A stretch of 14,087 nucleotides of DNA. Origin: a virus. A model generated the notes under the pieces. That model was not told the DNA's origin, did no database searches, and saw only the letters and a program-made list of their open reading frames with translations. The stretch lies in the UHGV virus genome UHGV-1356053. One strand, 5' to 3'. The translations under genes and the position numbers were made by a program. This document shows, in pieces, positions 5,407 to 12,873 of this stretch (its first letter is position 1; each line of letters begins with the position of its first letter).

Positions 5407-5754
5407 GTGGAAGAAGAAATCTTCACTCGTGAAGAAGCTGCGTCGTATCTGAAGGTAGACAAAGGCACTATCACACAGTGGATACGAAGTGGACGACTTC
5501 AGGCCGCAAAGATAAATCCAGATAAACCTAAAAGTCCATATCGCATTTGCAAGTCAGACTGCATTGCGGCGCTTAAGTCTGTGAGACACAATAGCGCGGT
5601 GAATGCGGTTGATGTGCAGGAGGTTAAAGCATGTCAATCAAACTACGCGGTGGCACGTGGCACTGCGATTTCGTCGCGCCAGATGGATCAAGAGTTAGAC
5701 GCTCTCTTGAAACATCGGACAAAAGGCAAGCGCAAGAACTTCACGATCGTCTGA
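5407..5754 (+). CDS. xis: Excisionase (helix-turn-helix Xis family), 115 aa
   Basis: GTG 5407 with GGAGA 6 nt upstream is the best-supported start (the track's ATG 5335 has no RBS); FTREEAASYLKVDKGTITQWIRSGRLQAAKI is an excisionase-type HTH; 3' end overlaps the int start by 124 nt in another frame. Confidence 0.65.
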   Translation: MEEEIFTREEAASYLKVDKGTITQWIRSGRLQAAKINPDKPKSPYRICKSDCIAALKSVRHNSAVNAVDVQEVKACQSNYAVARGTAISSRQMDQELDALLKHRTKGKRKNFTIV

Positions 5755-6791
5755 AAGCAGAAGCGTGGAGAGTAAAAAATCTCGGGGAATCACCGAAAAA
5801 GCTATTCAAGGAAGCCTGCATACGGTGGCTGCGTGAGAAATCGGATAAGAAGTCCATTGATGATGACAAGAGCATTATATCGTTCTGGATGTTGCACTTC
5901 AGAGAAGCCATTCTCTCTGACATAACAACAGAAAAAATAATGGAGGCGGTAGACGGGATGGAAAACCGCCGCCATCGCCTGAACTGGGAGATGAGCCGGG
6001 ACAGGTGTTTGCGACTTGGCAATCCGGTGCCGGAGTATAAACCAAAGCTGGCAAGCAAAGGAACGAAGACGAGGCATCTGGCAATACTTCGCGCCATTCT
6101 CAATATGGCTGTTGAATGGGGATGGCTTGACAGGGCACCCAAAATATCAACACCACGCGTTAAGAATGGACGCATCAGATGGCTTACAGAGGAGGAATCG
6201 AAGCGCCTGTTTGCAGAAATTGCTCCTCACTTCTTCCCTGTGGTCATGTTTGCAATCACGACAGGCCTTCGCCGTTCCAACGTTACAGACCTTGAGTGGT
6301 CACAGGTCGATCTGGATAAGAAAATGGCATGGATGCACCCTGATGAAACAAAAGCTGGCAATGCGATCGGAGTTCCTCTTAACGAAACCGCATGCCAGAT
6401 ATTAAGAAAACAGCAGGGGCTCCATAAGAGATGGGTATTTGTCCACACCAAACCTGCCTACCGAAGCGACGGAACAAAAACAGCAGCGGTAAGGAAGATG
6501 AGAACCGACAGCAACAAGGCATGGAAGGGAGCGTTAAAGCGGGCAGGCATTAGCAACTTCCGCTTCCATGACCTGAGGCATACCTGGGCAAGCTGGCTGG
6601 TTCAGTCCGGTGTCTCTCTTCTTGCACTTAAAGAGATGGGAGGATGGGAAACTCTCGAAATGGTTCAAAGATACGCCCACCTTTCAGCCGGGCATCTCAC
6701 CGAGCACGCGAGCAAAATCGATGCGATTATAAGTCGCAATGGCACAAATACGGCACAAGAGGAGAACGTAGTTTACTTAAATGTGAGGTAA
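5631..6791 (+). CDS. int: Tyrosine integrase, P22 Int type (386 aa)
   Basis: AGGAGG upstream of ATG 5631; resembles P22 Int throughout as recalled (KRQAQELHDRLKAEAWRV, TGLRRSN, FRFHDLRHTWASWLVQ, GGWE..EMVQRYAHL with the catalytic R..HxxR..Y pattern); ends 15 bp from the att core. Confidence 0.97.
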   Translation: MSIKLRGGTWHCDFVAPDGSRVRRSLETSDKRQAQELHDRLKAEAWRVKNLGESPKKLFKEACIRWLREKSDKKSIDDDKSIISFWMLHFREAILSDITTEKIMEAVDGMENRRHRLNWEMSRDRCLRLGNPVPEYKPKLASKGTKTRHLAILRAILNMAVEWGWLDRAPKISTPRVKNGRIRWLTEEESKRLFAEIAPHFFPVVMFAITTGLRRSNVTDLEWSQVDLDKKMAWMHPDETKAGNAIGVPLNETACQILRKQQGLHKRWVFVHTKPAYRSDGTKTAAVRKMRTDSNKAWKGALKRAGISNFRFHDLRHTWASWLVQSGVSLLALKEMGGWETLEMVQRYAHLSAGHLTEHASKIDAIISRNGTNTAQEENVVYLNVR

Positions 6792-6805
6792 CTTATTGAT
6801 TTAAA

Positions 6806-6851
6806 TGGTGCCGATAATAGGAGTCGAACCTACGACCTTCGCATTACGAAT
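6806..6851 (-). other. attP core: 46-bp copy of the 3' part of tRNA-Thr(CGU) (thrW-type target); not a complete tRNA gene
   Basis: Minus strand reads ATTCGTAATGCGAAGGTCGTAGGTTCGACTCCTATTATCGGCACCA: anticodon-loop 3' half, T-arm GGTTCGACTCC, acceptor 3' strand and CCA. The sequence 5' of it (GGTGCTACAG) does not continue the tRNA, so only the att-core part is present. Confidence 0.85.
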
Positions 6852-6910
6852 CTGTAGCACCAATCATAACTATCTGTTTTAGCAAGCATTAACCGCATTC
6901 ACCAAGCAAT

Positions 6911-7046
6911 AGTTGATGGCACAAACAGAAAGTTGATGCATGATGTTGTCATGTGTATGTCACAAATACGGCACAACGATCTTCAAACATGTAGCCACTC
7001 AGCATAGAAGAGCACAAAGCCTTGCAATCCAGTGCAAAGCTTTGTG
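6911..7046. repeat. Short repeats in the attP arm; candidate arm-type Int/IHF sites and a hairpin
   Basis: AGTTGATG twice (6911-6918, 6931-6938); sCACAA(A/C) four times (6918-6927, 6959-6969, 6970-6979, 7010-7020); inverted repeat CACAAAGC (7013-7020) / GCTTTGTG (7039-7046) followed by T-rich sequence. Confidence 0.4.
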
Positions 7047-7082
7047 TGTCTCAGTTTTGTTTCATCGGTAATTATGTGTTCG

Positions 7083-7382
7083 CTACGATGCAAGAATCCA
7101 TACCAATAAGCATCCGATAATTGGGAAAGAAAAATCCAACAGACTTCCCACATCCCACACGCGTGGATCAAAACCTCCCCACCACGGCATGTTGATGCGT
7201 TTCCCTTTCCCAAACTTTTCTATCCAGCGATATTCTGCCTGGGTGTGTTCACGCGCAATGAAGAACGTACAACCGGCTATCGCACCGTAAGCCCAGTTTC
7301 CGGTAGAAAGGCCAACCAGTACCTGAGCCGCAAAAGCGCAAAGCGAGTGAAGAAATGGAGTGACATCAATGCTCTTAATCAT
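7083..7382 (-). CDS. Hypothetical small membrane protein (99 aa), translationally coupled to the tailspike
   Basis: Its ATG (7382-7380) overlaps the tailspike stop (ATGA); hydrophobic segments [30 protein letters not shown] and [16 protein letters not shown]; occupies the tailspike-to-attP slot where P22 and Sf6 carry gtrABC or oac. Confidence 0.65.
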
Positions 7383-9436
7383 GAAACTTCCCCATTGGTT
7401 GAAAATATGGCTCCTCCAACGCCAAGTGTATTTCGTGTTGCGCTCAACCTCAGAGGGCTGGAGTCAGAATTAGAATATCCTGTAGCAGAAATAAAAGATC
7501 CTCCACTAATAGTCAACTGCGGAACATCGGCTATATCTGAATAAGTTCTGTCAGCAACAGTATTATTTATAGCCACATGTGATCCAAAAAAACTTCTTAT
7601 TGTTTGGTTTTTAACTTTACTTCCTTCAATGGTTATCCTACTACCACAGTCGGCAATAAATCCTGAATCTGCATCCAGCGTTGCATTCATAAAAGAAGCT
7701 TCAGATCTCTCTACATCAATCCATCTAATATCTTTTGTGGGATTTGCACCAAATACATGACAAATATTAGAGTTAAACCTTACTCCATCTTGGAGGTGCA
7801 TTAATTTTTTTATATCTGTACCCCATAGCCTTGGAAAATTAACAGATGCTCCTGCATGGCAATCAAATCCCAGCTCAGCCCCTGAGATATCTACAGCCTT
7901 TCCTGAAATAACAGCGCCAGTGTCTGCATTAACGGCTGTTCCACAATTGCGCATATCATTACCAGCAACATCAACACAACCCGCACCATCAATACGCACA
8001 CCAAGCGCACATCCATAAAAACCTTTTTCAATATTTGGTTCAAGGACTTTACCACTTGTTTCTGCATCACTTTCTTCAACGTCATGTCGTCTTGCATCAA
8101 CATATGCTGTATGAATGCAGGTTAATCCACGATATGAGCAGTGTATAGTTTTATGGTCGCGTATATTAACATTTGAACCATCTCTTACATTCCACCCCAT
8201 ATAACAATAGCTTGCACTTGACCCCTGAAAATCTGCTTTAACATTATAAATACAATTAACTGACGCAACCGTACTCTCTGTGCACCGTTCAAACTTGCTT
8301 ACAGGCATTGATGCCTTGACATTATTTACCAGTTGCAGGGAAGAGTATCTGCTATAAGAAAAATCACATACGTAATACCCTTCTGGCATATATGCAGCAA
8401 CACTTTCCTCATCAGGAGCACATCCGGTATGATATGCACTAATTTTTGCACCAAAGCTACCATGAATTCCAACGTAGAACTTTCGAGCACCTGAATACGG
8501 ATAGAAATTAAGTTCAGCTTTTTGAGTTACAATAAATGCACAAACATCGCTATCATCTCTATTTTCTTCAATCTGAATAGCAAATACAGGACTTTTTGCT
8601 GCATCGCAAATGTAAAATAAATATTTGTATTCGTAATACGTCCTAACAGTTTTAGTAAACAAACTGGTATCAGAGAAAACCACTGAGTCTTCTGATATTA
8701 TTTTAATCCATGATAAGTCACATCCTGCTGAAATTTCTATTTGCTCATTGAGCACAAAACCGGAAAGAATTTTAATTATGCAAAAATCAATGCCATTTTT
8801 CCATAGTGGACGCAGTGCAACAGCTGAGTTTAGAGCATCACTAATAGATTTAAAATTACCATATTCCCCAACTGTTATTGTGAATGCATACCTGGAATTA
8901 AATACTGCGGCACTCTCTCCAGAGTTAATAGCTGCAGATATCATGTCATAATTTGATATAAAATCATTTGGCGTGATTATTTCTGCGTTTTTATTGTGCT
9001 GTGTTCTAAGTTTTGAATTTACATGAACACTTTTAACTGCAATACGGGAGTCGTCAACAAGTATTTCATTACCCTCTGTTGCTAACTCTTGTCTTAACTG
9101 ATCCGGGTCATACTTCAGCACATTCGGAAAATAGAACTGCTGCACACCGTACGCATCATAAACAGCCATAGAATGGCCCTGTACAGTAACGAATTTGGCA
9201 ATCTGTCCGTTATATACAGGGTAACCAGCAGCGTTAATGATGATTGGTTGCGAAACAGGAACGTGAGAACCGTCTTCGTTTTCCACATAAACCTGAATCT
9301 GGTTTTCAGGATTTACCGGGTCAGTGTCAATTTTCCCGATATAAATTTTGCCATTGGCTACGGCTTTAAAAGAACGCGCCATAGTGAAGAGTTGCGAAGG
9401 CATACTCACTACAACATTGGCTGTAATGTCTGTCAT
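7379..9436 (-). CDS. Tailspike protein: P22/Sf6-type N-terminal head-binding domain plus divergent receptor-binding (putative depolymerase) body, 685 aa
   Basis: N-terminal ~115 aa ([46 protein letters not shown]...NVLKYDPDQ) match the podovirus tailspike head-binding domain as recalled; the rest is Gly/Asn/Ser/Val/Cys-rich repetitive sequence compatible with a beta-helix; GGAG 8 nt upstream of the ATG. Confidence 0.95.
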
Positions 9437-9472
9437 TTAATTTGCTCCAGATACAAGGAATCGCCGCAGCAT

Positions 9473-9519
9473 TGCCACAGTGATGCATTATTAATCAAAC
9501 AAAGAGACCGCTGTGGTCT
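9473..9519. promoter_or_regulatory. Candidate operator elements in the divergent tailspike/mnt control region
   Basis: TGCCACAG (9473-9480) and its inverted near-copy CTGTGGTC (9511-9518; reverse complement GACCACAG); local palindrome AGACC-N5-GGTCT (9505-9519); lies in the 146-bp gap between the tailspike and mnt starts. Confidence 0.35.
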
Positions 9520-9582
9520 TATTGAGGATGCAACCAGCAGATAATAAGATGCCGATCCACTCACAAAAGCGAGGCATCAAGA

Positions 9583-9834
9583 ATGGGAAGAGATGACCCG
9601 CAATTTAATCTGCGGCTACCTTACGAATTAAAGGAAAAACTAAAACAGCGAGCCAAATCCAATGGCCGCTCTCTTAATTCAGAATTAGTTCAGATAGTGA
9701 CTGATGCTGTATCAAAGCCATCCAAAATTTCAGGCTATCGAGACGATGCGGAACGCATCGCTGATGAGCAGTCAGAGCTTGTTAAGAAGATGGTGTTTGA
9801 TACGCTGAAGGATTTGTACAAAAAACCCACCTGA
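9583..9834 (+). CDS. mnt: Mnt-type ribbon-helix-helix repressor (83 aa)
   Basis: MGRDDPQFNLRLPYELKEKLKQRAKSNGRSLNSELVQIVTDAVSKPSKISGYRDDAERIADEQSELVKKMVFDTLKDLYKKPT matches P22 Mnt along its whole length as recalled, including the C-terminal ADEQSELVKKMVFDTLKDLYKK. Confidence 0.93.
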   Translation: MGRDDPQFNLRLPYELKEKLKQRAKSNGRSLNSELVQIVTDAVSKPSKISGYRDDAERIADEQSELVKKMVFDTLKDLYKKPT

Positions 9835-9850
9835 AGGTGGGTTAATTTTT
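9824..9850 (+). terminator. Rho-independent terminator of mnt
   Basis: AACCCACC (9824-9831), loop TGAA, GGTGGGTT (9836-9843), then AATTTTT; the mnt stop codon lies in the loop. Confidence 0.75.
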
Positions 9851-9868
9851 GCATTTACCTGGGCCATA

Positions 9869-9897
9869 TTGACTACTTATAAAATGAGATCAATATT
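9869..9897 (+). promoter_or_regulatory. Candidate sigma70 promoter for the small downstream gene
   Basis: TTGACT (9869-9874), 16-17 nt spacer, CAATAT/AATATT (9891-9897); about 35 nt upstream of the RBS at 9925. Confidence 0.35.
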
Positions 9898-9933
9898 TAA
9901 TCGCCCAATAACGGGTGTATGTTGAGGTATATC

Positions 9934-10113
9934 ATGGCGAAAAAACCAGGTGAAAACACAGGAAAAAACGGCGGAATATACCAAGAAGTTGGCCCACGCG
10001 GCGGTAAGAAAGACAATTTTGCAACCGTCAAGGACAACGAAAGGCTTCCACCAACAACAAAGCCAGGTCATGGCTGGGTATTGGATAAGCGAACTCCAGA
10101 CAGCAAAAAGTAA
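9934..10113 (+). CDS. Small Gly/Lys-rich hypothetical protein (59 aa), tentatively YjzC-like
   Basis: ATG 9934 with GAGGT 5 nt upstream; MAKKPGENTGKNGGIYQEVGPRGGKKDNFATVKDNERLPPTTKPGHGWVL...; flanked by its own promoter candidate and a terminator. Confidence 0.6.
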   Translation: MAKKPGENTGKNGGIYQEVGPRGGKKDNFATVKDNERLPPTTKPGHGWVLDKRTPDSKK

Positions 10114-10118
10114 TAATC

Positions 10119-10141
10119 AAGCCGGGTCACTCCGGCTTTTT
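10119..10141. terminator. Bidirectional intrinsic terminator between convergent genes
   Basis: AAGCCGG (10119-10125), loop GTCACT, CCGGCTT (10132-10138), then TTTT; the stop codon of the minus-strand HExxH gene (10127-10129) lies within the hairpin. Confidence 0.7.
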
Positions 10142-10492
10142 GATATGTCGCTCGCAGAACTCAACAAGCCTGCTCATTAAGTAGCAGTAAGTCTCGTTGG
10201 CTCTTCCTGGTTCAACATCAACACCTACCCTTGAGCAGATATCGAATGCCATGTGAGCGCACTCATGGGCAATAGTAGATAGTTTGCCATTGAACACGCC
10301 TATCACATGCAAAACACCATTCTCGCTACTCATTGTATGAGACGCTCCGTTGGCGTCCGAGTCATGCACGTCAACGCCAAGTTTTTGATGCAGGCGTTGC
10401 CATTCTGGAAAGTCTCTACAAAACACAATTGTACCGCTCTCAAAGAGCGGAACGAGCATCTTTGGTACGTTTCCAATGTTAACTTTTTTCAT
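10127..10492 (-). CDS. Small soluble HExxH-motif protein (putative minimal Zn-metallopeptidase-like), 121 aa
   Basis: ATG 10492-10490 with AGGA upstream; IAHECAHMAFD (HExxH) followed by Glu residues 16-22 positions downstream (VDVE, NET), a gluzincin-like arrangement; no hydrophobic segments. Confidence 0.7.
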   Translation of the reverse strand: MKKVNIGNVPKMLVPLFESGTIVFCRDFPEWQRLHQKLGVDVHDSDANGASHTMSSENGVLHVIGVFNGKLSTIAHECAHMAFDICSRVGVDVEPGRANETYCYLMSRLVEFCERHIKKPE

Positions 10493-10526
10493 GGTATCCT
10501 GCGCAAAACTAAGGAGAGTTAATTAT

Positions 10527-11012
10527 ATGAAAAAATCACTGTTAATTATCCCGCTTCTGCTGGCTGGGTGCGCAAAAGTAAGCGACTATCAGGCAAGTTG
10601 CGAGCAACGCTATCCAAAGCTTAGCGATATGGCTAATTGCCTTGATGCCAGCTTGAAGAACGACTCTCGCATGGCATCAGCACCAACACCTAAGCTGTAT
10701 GTCCTTGCTGCGAAGATGCTCGGGCAAGGTGTCGATGAAGGCAAGATAAGTGACACACAGGCAAGACTTGAACTTCAGAATCTTTATGTTCAATTACAAA
10801 GCCAAGAACAAGCACAACAAATAGCACAAAGCCAAGCATTCCAGCAGGCTTTATTGAATTATCAGGCTGTAAACACAATGCAAGCGATCGAGCAAAAAGC
10901 GCGCCAGCCTGTTATAACTCAACCTTACCCAACACGCGTTGACACATATACAAACTGCAATTCAGGATTTGGAAACACGGTAACATGCAACAGTAGCAGT
11001 AATATCAGATAG
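10527..11012 (+). CDS. Lipoprotein with Gln-rich coiled-coil region (161 aa)
   Basis: ATG 10527 with AAGGAG 10 nt upstream; signal peptide MKKSLLIIPLLLAGC with lipobox LAG-C, Ala at +2; four further Cys in two pairs; QSQEQAQQIAQSQAFQQALLNYQAV coiled-coil-like. Confidence 0.8.
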   Translation: MKKSLLIIPLLLAGCAKVSDYQASCEQRYPKLSDMANCLDASLKNDSRMASAPTPKLYVLAAKMLGQGVDEGKISDTQARLELQNLYVQLQSQEQAQQIAQSQAFQQALLNYQAVNTMQAIEQKARQPVITQPYPTRVDTYTNCNSGFGNTVTCNSSSNIR

Positions 11013-11025
11013 TTATATCTTATTT

Positions 11026-12873
11026 TTATTGCTGTTCTGCTGTAATTTGGCTTGAAAGTATAGGGCGTATCGCATTTGCAGCATTATTTAGCGCTCTTTC
11101 ATAGGCTGGTGTTCCTGCTTTGGTGTTTGCCAAACGTAAGAGAGCATTCCTTGCTGCTTTTGACTCATACAAGCGCATCATTGCACCGAAACCAGCCTCA
11201 AGCCCCATTGATACGCCAAGAGTCGCAGTTGCGCCAATCGTCCTTATCCTGTTGGCTTGCGATTGCCCCGTCTGAGTTACTACATTTGCGGTGTCTGACC
11301 TTGCTGTTTGCTGTAGAACTTCATGAAGAGAATCAAGCTCTTTCATGTGCTTTCCAGAAAAAATAGTGTTGTAAATTTCACCGCCTGACTGAGATTTCAG
11401 CTTATTAACTTCAGTGATGAACTTGGCTGGAGAGTCACCGGCCTTTTCCGCTATTTTGCTGACATAAGCTGCACGCATAGCATCTTTCCCTTTATTATCC
11501 AATGCGCTCCAGATTCGTTTCACGTCAGATGGTTTTCTGCTTAATACAACGGTATTTATAAGTTCAGGACTGGCTTCACTGCTTGCCTTGTTGAGCTTGT
11601 TAGCAATGTTTTTATTAAGCACCTTATTATAAACGTTTGCATAATCGGAATTTGCTTTAAGGTATTTTGCTGCGTCTGATGCACCGAGGTTTTTTGCAAC
11701 TGCGTTACGAAGATCTTTTGACATTGCATTCTCTACCATATTGGTAGCTGCTTTTGCCTGGTTTGGGAAGACCATAGCATCTCCCTGAACATTAGATCTA
11801 AATGCTGTTCTGTGCTGACGCAAGAGATCAAACGTAACATCCAAATCAGTTGCAGGGTTTGCTAATTCTTCACGTAGGTTACGCAAGGATGTAAGCAGGC
11901 TTTGATTGGCAGACGTCCCAAGCCGTTCCTGTCTTGCGATCGCTGTATTCAGAGCATTCATGGTATTTGTGGTATCAACTGCGGCATTACCCATTTTATT
12001 GGTGACGTCATTGATAACAGCGCCAGCGGCATCCTTCCGCCCCCTTAACGTGGTGGTAAGAGATTTCACCACATCATCAGGGTTGTACTCACCAAAACGG
12101 TCAAAATAATTACTTACCAGCTTACTACGCGTTGCATATTGCTCCGCTCGCTTTGAGCCTGTCCCGAGCAAAGCCCCCTCGGCATCCTGAGTTAGGCCGC
12201 GAGTGAAAGCATTTTTCGGCGGGATAACATCAGATGTCATTGGTGTCACGCCCATCGATTCTGATGTGGCAATTTTCTTCGCCACTTCTGGCGCAATATC
12301 ACCTTTTATAGCCGTTATTCCACGCCCTATTCCCTTTGCTGCTGCGGAAAGAACCCCCTGAGCGGCAAGGTTAACTCCGGCATTTTTAGCTGCATTTTGT
12401 GCGAAATCGCCTTTCTGATTTGCGGCCTCTGCCAGTGATCCAATAGCCATGCTTCCTGCCGTTCCAACTCCTGGAACTAAATACCCGCCAATTGTTTCTC
12501 CAGCTTGCGCATAAGGGTCTGTTGGTCGATCGACTGGACGATAGACATCGTCCAAAACCTTGGGGCCACCAAGCCCCTGGCTGATTGCATTAATCAGACT
12601 TGCGCCGCCCTGCAATACGTCAAATGGTATGTTTACCAGACCACGACCAGCCTGTTCCGCAATTTGCCCTGCACTTTGACCACCAGTGAGCCAATCGCCA
12701 GCTTGTTGCATCAATGATGGTTCTTCCCGTGTTGGTGCATTATTGGCCTGATTAACTGTTTGTTGCTGAACAGCCTGACCAGCAAAATACTCATCAATGG
12801 CGGTGCCAATATCTTCGGTGCTCGTACCATCAGGAAAGGTAAATATCTTACCGTTTGCAGTTACTTTCATCAT
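11026..12873 (-). CDS. Ejection (DNA-transfer) protein, P22 gp16-like by size and position (615 aa)
   Basis: Ala/Gly/Gln-rich soluble protein of the size expected for gp16, immediately upstream (in late-operon direction) of the sieA/immI-position island and tailspike. The second ATG (12870) has the better-spaced GGTGG RBS. Confidence 0.8.

Follow-up and report, generated by a model that had tools for sequence, protein, structure and literature searches.

In phage P22, the immI region combines the repressor gene mnt with arc, ant and sar, and arc and ant are expressed from a promoter, Pant, that is overlapped by the Mnt operator O_mnt; the defining job of Mnt in this setting is to keep the antirepressor off. 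An ant moron that holds mnt alone has been published for ST64T, ST104 and Para1 (PMC2629481) and for phage L, for which it was raised as a question whether the solitary gene has taken on a different role or is left over as a remnant (PMC8022706). Here, we describe such an mnt gene in the UHGV virus genome UHGV-1356053, a stretch of 14,087 nucleotides that was analysed as a whole (the window) and whose source is a P22-like (Lederbergvirus) Escherichia coli phage. Our comparisons suggest, with a probability of about two in three, that this locus encodes a functional stand-alone Mnt-class repressor of distinct specificity, which would regulate its own expression, up or down, at a single operator. 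The elements on which this proposal is built are the following, in window coordinates:

7379–9436, minus strand: tailspike gene (gene 9 homologue; 685 amino acids; phrog_5662), with a Pfam Head_binding match at residues 1–113 (E = 2e-66)
9437–9582: divergent intergenic region between the tailspike gene and mnt, 146 bp, without arc and without a Pant-type promoter
9505–9519, centre 9512: putative Mnt operator AGACCGC-T-GTGGTCT, at a place homologous to P22 O_mnt
9522–9550, plus strand: Pmnt homologue (TTGAGG, 17-nt spacer, TAAGAT), predicted start near 9557
9583–9834, plus strand: mnt gene of the Gln6 class, an open reading frame (ORF) of 83 amino acids with a ribbon-helix-helix domain at residues 1–51 and the Mnt tetramerisation helix at residues 53–80

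The predicted protein (MGRDDPQFNLRLPYELKEKLKQRAKSNGRSLNSELVQIVTDAVSKPSKISGYRDDAERIADEQSELVKKMVFDTLKDLYKKPT; 83 amino acids by ORF translation, starting MGRDDPQFNLRLPYELKEKL) resembles P22 Mnt in its length, its overall sequence (78% identity), its two domains and its slot between genes 16 and 9. The N-terminal Arc-like ribbon-helix-helix was detected with Pfam Arc (PF03869; E = 2.8e-22; 78.8 bits, cut-off 20.4) and the C-terminal Mnt helix with Repressor_Mnt (PF11423; E = 2.2e-18; 66 bits, cut-off 20.9), and both solved domains of P22 Mnt were matched in the PDB (1mnt, E = 2.8e-34; 1qey, E = 3e-12, near-identical across 31 residues). The original prediction held that the N-terminal strand departs from that of P22 Mnt (MARDDPHFNFRM), and the alignment places the differences at Ala1Gly, His6Gln and Phe9Leu. 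Where P22-type proteins combine a His6/Asn8/Arg10 strand with GTGGAC(C) half-sites, the window has Gln6 and the half-site GTGGTC(T). The PQFNLR strand of the Gln6 protein (PQFNLR-P) is identical to the recognition strand of P22 Arc (Arc residues 8–15), and the rest of the protein is Mnt. Arc, with 44% identity as a tblastn query against the window mnt product, is a 53-residue dimer with another N-terminal arm and without the tetramerisation helix, whereas the window protein has 83 residues and the Mnt C-terminal domain; beyond the general ribbon-helix-helix fold, the β-strand alone is held in common. The Arc operator consists of TAGA boxes, unlike the palindrome in the window.

This palindrome, predicted as AGACC-N5-GGTCT in the gap between the two genes, does lie there, at 9505–9519, as the core around the 13-bp palindrome GACCGC-T-GTGGTC (9506–9518). 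In an alignment of the gaps, O_mnt followed by the −35 element of Pmnt in P22 (ACAGGTCCACCGTGGACCTATTGAGAATATAG) corresponds to AGAGACCGCTGTGGTCTTATTGAGGATGCA in the window, where the palindrome is the homologue of O_mnt and, as in P22, abuts the −35 element of the mnt promoter and has GTG as its inner half-site. By count alone the palindrome is within chance (one site in the window against 0.29 expected, and at least one in 48 of 200 shuffles); we nevertheless take it as real because it is conserved. Among 122 loci with Gln6-type mnt, which amount to 36 distinct upstream sequences and include some contigs twice, GACCAC-N-GTGGTC is perfect in 114 and has one mismatch in the remaining eight, the window among them; the central base is free (G in 36, T in 38, C in 24 and A in 24), and the distance from the operator centre to the mnt ATG is 71 ± 1 bp. 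Escherichia, Salmonella, Serratia and Klebsiella all share, without change, the operator core, the TTATTG(A/T)GG next to it and the −10 region; leftward of these, the sequences diverge. The window mismatch is a G at 9510 (GACCGC against GACCAC in the class), and the same mismatch is found at two other loci (L034 and L042). Two-fold symmetric, about 17 bp long and placed just upstream of the mnt promoter, the conserved palindrome has the features of a Mnt-family operator, an assignment that draws on sequence comparison. When GACCACNGTGGTC was searched for with up to two mismatches, a single site each was found in the window and in the genomes of the E. coli phage Gally and the Salmonella phage ST160. 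The exact 15-mer AGACCACNGTGGTCT is present in viral contigs at 120 loci at least; among the matches listed, 47 were mnt–tailspike loci and 73 were unrelated, the latter mostly high-GC or coding and without arc or ant.

Structuring the natural alleles by residues 6 and 8 gave three classes, each with its own operator: His6/Asn8 (P22) with AGGTCCAC-C-GTGGACCT, Gln6/Asn8 (window) with AAGACCAC-N-GTGGTCTT, and Lys6/Thr8 (Salmonella prophage L213) with AAGGTCAC-C-GTGACCTT. Across the three, the inner GTG is constant, and the fourth and fifth operator bases from the centre covary with residues 6 and 8. According to review text, a single-residue change in Mnt affects base preference chiefly at two neighbouring positions of the operator (PMC1184061). 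Between the operators of the Gln6 class (GACCAC-N-GTGGTC) and of P22 (GGTCCAC-N-GTGGACC), the change is symmetric and falls on the fifth base from the centre (GTGGTC versus GTGGAC). The residue concerned in such a shift of preference we take to be His6, and the two positions presumably are 16 and 17 when the operator is numbered over 21 bp, which correspond to the A and C of GTGGACC; this pairing of residue 6 with the two bases reportedly goes back to Youderian in 1983, Knight and Sauer in 1989, and Silbaq, Man and Stormo in 2001–2004. If this numbering is as we assume, the natural change of A16 to T is at the residue-6 position. The Gln6 protein very probably represents a separate natural specificity class, its DNA binding being deduced from homology, and the changed specificity proposed by the original prediction is very probably correct in view of the His6-to-Gln exchange and the symmetric difference from P22 O_mnt. 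Within the third class (L213–L215, Salmonella prophages; MARDEPKFTFRMPP, Lys6/Thr8), mnt comes with a complete arc–ant unit and a consensus Pant, and in L213 it is followed by genes for a HicA toxin and a DUF1902 protein.

The absence of arc and ant from the window was examined with P22 Arc and Ant as tblastn queries (E ≤ 10), which across the window, Gally and ST160 returned nothing beyond mnt itself and a weak Roi-like match (E = 0.12), and in the window mnt alone. The claim of an orphan mnt beside the tailspike, without arc or ant, is thereby upheld, and extends to the complete genomes of Gally and ST160: no arc/ant pair was detected elsewhere in the three, and in none of them are arc and ant read from a Pant overlapped by O_mnt, as in a complete immI. 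The gap was likewise correctly judged too short for arc, with 146 bp against the 162 bp of the arc gene. Compared with P22 immI, the window is devoid of Pant, arc, ant and sar, and the defining job of Mnt, keeping the antirepressor off, is therefore absent here. Among 80 IMG/VR loci, all 65 Gln6 genes are located beside the tailspike gene without arc or ant, at 136, 147–149 or approximately 420–432 bp from the head-binding domain, and all 15 His6 genes are accompanied by arc and ant. Prophage Gln6 genes of Serratia and Klebsiella, at 64–73% protein identity, show the same mnt–tailspike adjacency and again no arc or ant. In the sequences compared, the Gln6 class is strictly linked to the orphan layout across all loci examined, in four genera. 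Neither this link nor the covariation of residues and operator is described in the published accounts of mnt-only phages consulted here.

The novelty that the original prediction implied for the layout is another matter, because the arrangement of ST64T, ST104 and Para1 (PMC2629481) and of phage L (PMC8022706) is the same; the stand-alone mnt layout is an already known, widespread and annotated module of P22-like prophages. Region 9300–10000 of the window can be aligned over its whole length, at about 85%, with the Salmonella phages ST160, SE1 and relatives, and the tailspike start, gap and mnt are 99% identical to those of the E. coli phages vB_EcoP-720R6 and Gally; in all of these phages mnt is annotated directly beside the tailspike gene. 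As in the window, the order in ST64T, ST104, L, SE1, ST160 and Gally is tailspike, short gap and mnt (PMC2629481, PMC8022706, PMC9928086), and the Mnt proteins of ST160 and Gally are 92% and 100% identical to ours, respectively. What differs in these phages is the receptor-binding part of the tailspike and the moron genes downstream of mnt, and the window operator has its one mismatch. The 398-bp segment from the gap to the end of mnt was found with at least 80% coverage in 112 of 5426 complete E. coli genomes (~2%), one of which is 100% identical over the segment and carries it in a prophage beside tRNA-Arg.

Promoter scans of the gap point to the mnt promoter region as the likely place of regulation. 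The Pmnt homologue scores 9.9 in a position-weight scan, against 12.5 for P22 Pmnt, is equally distant from the operator, and has hexamers that are conserved across genera; a generic consensus scan missed it, with 8 of 12 positions matched. The position-weight scan also recovers P22 Pant (TTGACA-17-TATATT, score 16.5), the hexamers homologous to which read TCGGCA/TGCATC in the window; read by eye, the −10 homologue of each of the four genera ends in C rather than the critical T. No O_arc-like sequence was found in the gap, from which Pant is also missing, and neither the consensus nor the position-weight scan revealed a credible σ70 promoter in the gap facing the tailspike gene, the best leftward score being 5.5. 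A weak leftward candidate, TTTTGT-16-TATTAT, was rejected as it is not conserved in Serratia. Since arc, ant and Pant are absent from the Gln6 class, its own promoter region is the sole visible cis target of Mnt, that is, autoregulation. In the mechanism we favour, the 83-residue protein would form a tetramer of ribbon-helix-helix dimers like P22 Mnt, and the tetramer would bind the one palindrome, whose centre is 9512, a site that precedes the −35 element of its own promoter by about 10 bp and the divergent tailspike ATG by 76 bp; bound there, Mnt would regulate its own promoter with the same geometry as in P22.

Two further structured elements are present in the gap:

9548–9578: inverted repeat GATGCC-N19-GGCATC, spanning the mnt −10 element and leader and overlapping the Shine-Dalgarno sequence GAGG (9571–9574)
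9464–9480, minus strand: 7-bp hairpin in the gene-9 leader, containing the left CCACAG (9475–9480)

Both arms of the inverted repeat are invariant in the four genera, as is the block GCCGATCCACT, and the repeat is predicted to fold more stably in RNA of the minus strand (−13.9 kcal/mol, z = −2.6) than in RNA of the plus strand, the mnt mRNA (−8.9 kcal/mol, z = −1.4). The gene-9 leader hairpin, located just upstream of the tailspike Shine-Dalgarno sequence, occurs in phages of Escherichia, Salmonella, Serratia and Klebsiella as well as in P22; in an RNAalifold analysis of seven diverse loci, P22 included, seven of seven pairs are kept, three of them with compensatory changes, and as no U-run follows it is not an obvious terminator. 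Of the inverted CCACAG motif that the original prediction pointed out, both copies are indeed there (9475–9480, and CTGTGG at 9511–9516), but they are not a Mnt-related pair, the right copy being inside the operator. A role of CCACAG as a second operator or as a half-site for Mnt was rejected: its left copy forms an arm of the hairpin, in P22 too, and is not operator-like in ST160.

Substitution patterns bear on whether the protein is still in use. Relative to ST160, the ratio of nonsynonymous to synonymous substitution (dN/dS) of the window mnt is 0.095 at a dS of 0.51, and, judged by this ratio, the gene is under purifying selection. Relative to P22, codons 1–51 show about 62% identity and their synonymous sites are saturated, and codons 61–83 are identical at 71 of 72 nucleotides. 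From this divergence at the N-terminus and near-identity at the 3′ end, the DNA-binding domain and the operator are an old allele, and the tetramerisation helix and the downstream ORF have been exchanged recently with P22-type phages. The mosaic joint inside mnt is apparent over window positions 9733–10000, where codons 61–83 and the downstream ORF have ~97–99% DNA identity to P22; this ORF (9919–10113, 64 amino acids, phrog_3202) is the homologue of P22 ORF59a.

The same near-identity, counted over codons 58–83, next to a divergent N-terminal domain, implies that the tetramerisation helix is freely exchanged between classes, and it could be taken to favour an action in trans, in which the Gln6 protein represses an antirepressor promoter with a Gln6-type operator in incoming or co-resident phages, or upsets His6-type immI control by forming mixed tetramers by way of the common C-terminal helix. 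P22 Mnt is itself a maintenance repressor acting in trans. However, no ant with a Gln6-type operator was seen among the matches listed for AGACCACNGTGGTCT, a phage controlling its ant in this way would itself need a Gln6 mnt, ant is found in none of approximately 75 Gln6 loci, and mixed tetramers are purely conjectural, so that we regard a function of this kind as improbable.

Expression data are available for the Gally prophage in E. coli LF82, as log2(fpkm + 5) (fpkm, fragments per kilobase per million) over five conditions (PMC9928086 and its S1 table). The values for the relevant genes, with LB denoting lysogeny broth, are:

mnt: about 3.7 in LB stationary phase and about 9.0 in macrophages at 1 h
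tailspike: 3.9 in LB stationary phase, 6.7 in macrophages at 1 h and 7.8 in macrophages at 6 h
GALLYPH_17, the ORF after the tailspike and homologue of the phrog_1443 ORF: 4.1 in LB stationary phase and 8.5 in macrophages at 6 h
last injection gene: 3.6–4.1, flat in all conditions

The mnt module is thus transcribed from the prophage, and the tailspike gene is receiving transcription that does not originate from the late promoter. Gally counterparts of two window moron ORFs (phrog_1365 and phrog_6067) have the highest expression in the prophage after the C2 repressor (PMC9928086).

These data are relevant to the suggestion of the original prediction that Mnt has gained a new target such as the tailspike, for which we found no support: no promoter faces gene 9, each genome has one operator, this operator is exactly at the P22 site beside the −35 element of Pmnt, and mnt and tailspike mRNAs rise together (PMC9928086). 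The parallel rise misfits a simple repression of the tailspike by Mnt, but a modulatory role would be compatible with it. More broadly, Mnt might gate the tailspike gene, either by repressing a promoter or by blocking leftward read-through from the late operon or the morons into gene 9, in the lysogen or in superinfecting relatives. At every locus examined in the four genera, Gln6 mnt and the tailspike gene are direct neighbours in divergent orientation, and the gap contains no promoter facing gene 9, so all transcription into gene 9 must cross the operator; furthermore, the epsilon34 paper suggests a possible effect of the ant moron, of Mnt and of Arc on late transcription that enters gene 9 (PMC2629481), and the Gally prophage transcribes its tailspike with the upstream injection genes at background (PMC9928086). 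Against such gating, the best leftward score of 5.5 compares with 16.5 for P22 Pant and the candidate is not conserved in Serratia, the two mRNAs increase in parallel over the five conditions (PMC9928086), and insertions between operator and tailspike are tolerated, whether of ~280 bp (L033-type loci) or of an HNH endonuclease gene (Klebsiella). A bound repressor may also not stop an antiterminated late polymerase. Taken together, we consider gating of the tailspike unlikely, although it is the main rival to our reading. A more specific form, in which the Gln6 protein would be a dedicated gatekeeper of the tailspike, with the tetramer and convergent transcription from Pmnt jointly setting the leftward flow into gene 9 and the downstream ORF, in the prophage as well as in superinfecting relatives that share the operator, is in our view somewhat more doubtful still.

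The insertions just mentioned appear as scars of tailspike exchange. Loci with a gap of ~425 bp (L033, 2840–2925) keep the old gene-9 start and a leader remnant at the operator, after which come an AT-rich insert of ~280 bp and then a different tailspike. At two Klebsiella loci (L211/L212, 2339–2859), the HNH endonuclease gene stands between the operator and the tailspike.

Transcription of mnt against the direction of the late operon also brings to mind phage BTP1, whose lysogen produces STnc6030, a transcript of the same orientation at the junction of gene 16 and gene 9 that excludes superinfecting BTP1 (PMC7067206). By analogy, the mnt transcript (~9557–9843) might itself act as an antisense RNA to late transcripts entering gene 9. 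STnc6030 is, like mnt, prophage-expressed at the junction of injection gene and tailspike (PMC7067206), but it is non-coding and shares with mnt no homologous sequence and no operator, so the analogy is one of position alone: the 155-bp junction of BTP1 contains no homologue of mnt, the operator or Pmnt. Strong purifying selection at the protein level also speaks against an antisense role, which would in addition leave the conserved palindrome unexplained, and we consider it very improbable.

Returning to the proposal of a functional, self-regulating repressor, several observations weigh against it. The half-site mismatch, G at 9510, may mean weaker binding in the window phage. In Gally, deletion of mnt left macrophage survival, the sole assay, unchanged (PMC9928086), and the mnt mRNA varies more than 30-fold between conditions (PMC9928086), which is unlike tight negative autoregulation alone. 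Autoregulation by itself does not account for the maintenance of mnt across genera. Most likely, Mnt here is a self-regulating stand-alone repressor with a further target besides its own promoter. The absence of a macrophage-survival phenotype could also be read as the sign of a decaying immI remnant, left without present function after deletion of arc and ant; this is one possibility given in the phage L paper (PMC8022706), and truncated versions of 52 amino acids exist at two loci (L063 and L068). Such decay is difficult to reconcile with the dN/dS of 0.095 at dS 0.51, with the conservation of protein, operator and promoter from Escherichia to Serratia at 64–73% protein identity, with an operator core that is perfect in 114 of 122 loci, or with the transcription of mnt (PMC9928086), and we judge it quite improbable.

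The surroundings of mnt conform to those of an ant moron. In the window, early-left genes and the integrase gene (plus strand) are followed by the end of the late operon (minus strand), and the mnt block, flanked by the last injection gene and the tailspike, mostly opposes the late operon, as expected for the placement of an ant moron. In the tailspike product, the head-binding domain is conserved and the receptor-binding part that comes after it is variable. The remaining features of this neighbourhood are:

9583–11012: block of small moron ORFs between the gene 16 homologue and the tailspike gene
9824–9843: bidirectional intrinsic terminator over the mnt stop codon, with an 8-bp G+C-rich stem and T runs on both strands
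11026–12873, minus strand: gene 16 homologue (phrog_770)

Folding of the terminator gives −14.6 kcal/mol on the plus strand and −16.9 kcal/mol on the minus strand (z = −3.3 and −4.4, respectively), and because it overlaps the mnt stop codon, mnt is monocistronic. Two moron ORFs, at 10127–10492 (minus strand, phrog_1365) and 10476–11012 (plus strand, phrog_6067), are situated between mnt and gene 16. On the other side, an ORF of 99 amino acids (7083–7382, minus strand, phrog_1443) overlaps the tailspike stop codon by 4 nt, and the integrase gene (5631–6791, plus strand) is convergent with the tailspike operon (window 5631–7100). In E. coli PCP07083 (L219, 3159–4934), the same integrase–tailspike end adjoins tRNA-Arg, which places the attachment site beyond the integrase gene and not between it and the tailspike.

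The covariation of residues 6 and 8 with the operator in at least three natural alleles is the counterpart, in nature, of the classic laboratory work on Mnt specificity. Were Mnt indeed a gatekeeper of the tailspike, controlling the supply of tail protein would count as an ancestral role of Mnt, or as an alternative one, and arc–ant would be an insertion into that circuit. The Gln6 allele is always found without the antirepressor that would be expected as its target, yet it is kept in four genera. Our comparison in this way sharpens the question raised in the phage L paper, whether the solitary gene has gained another function or is a remnant, and since a Gally mnt deletion already exists, this question is directly testable.

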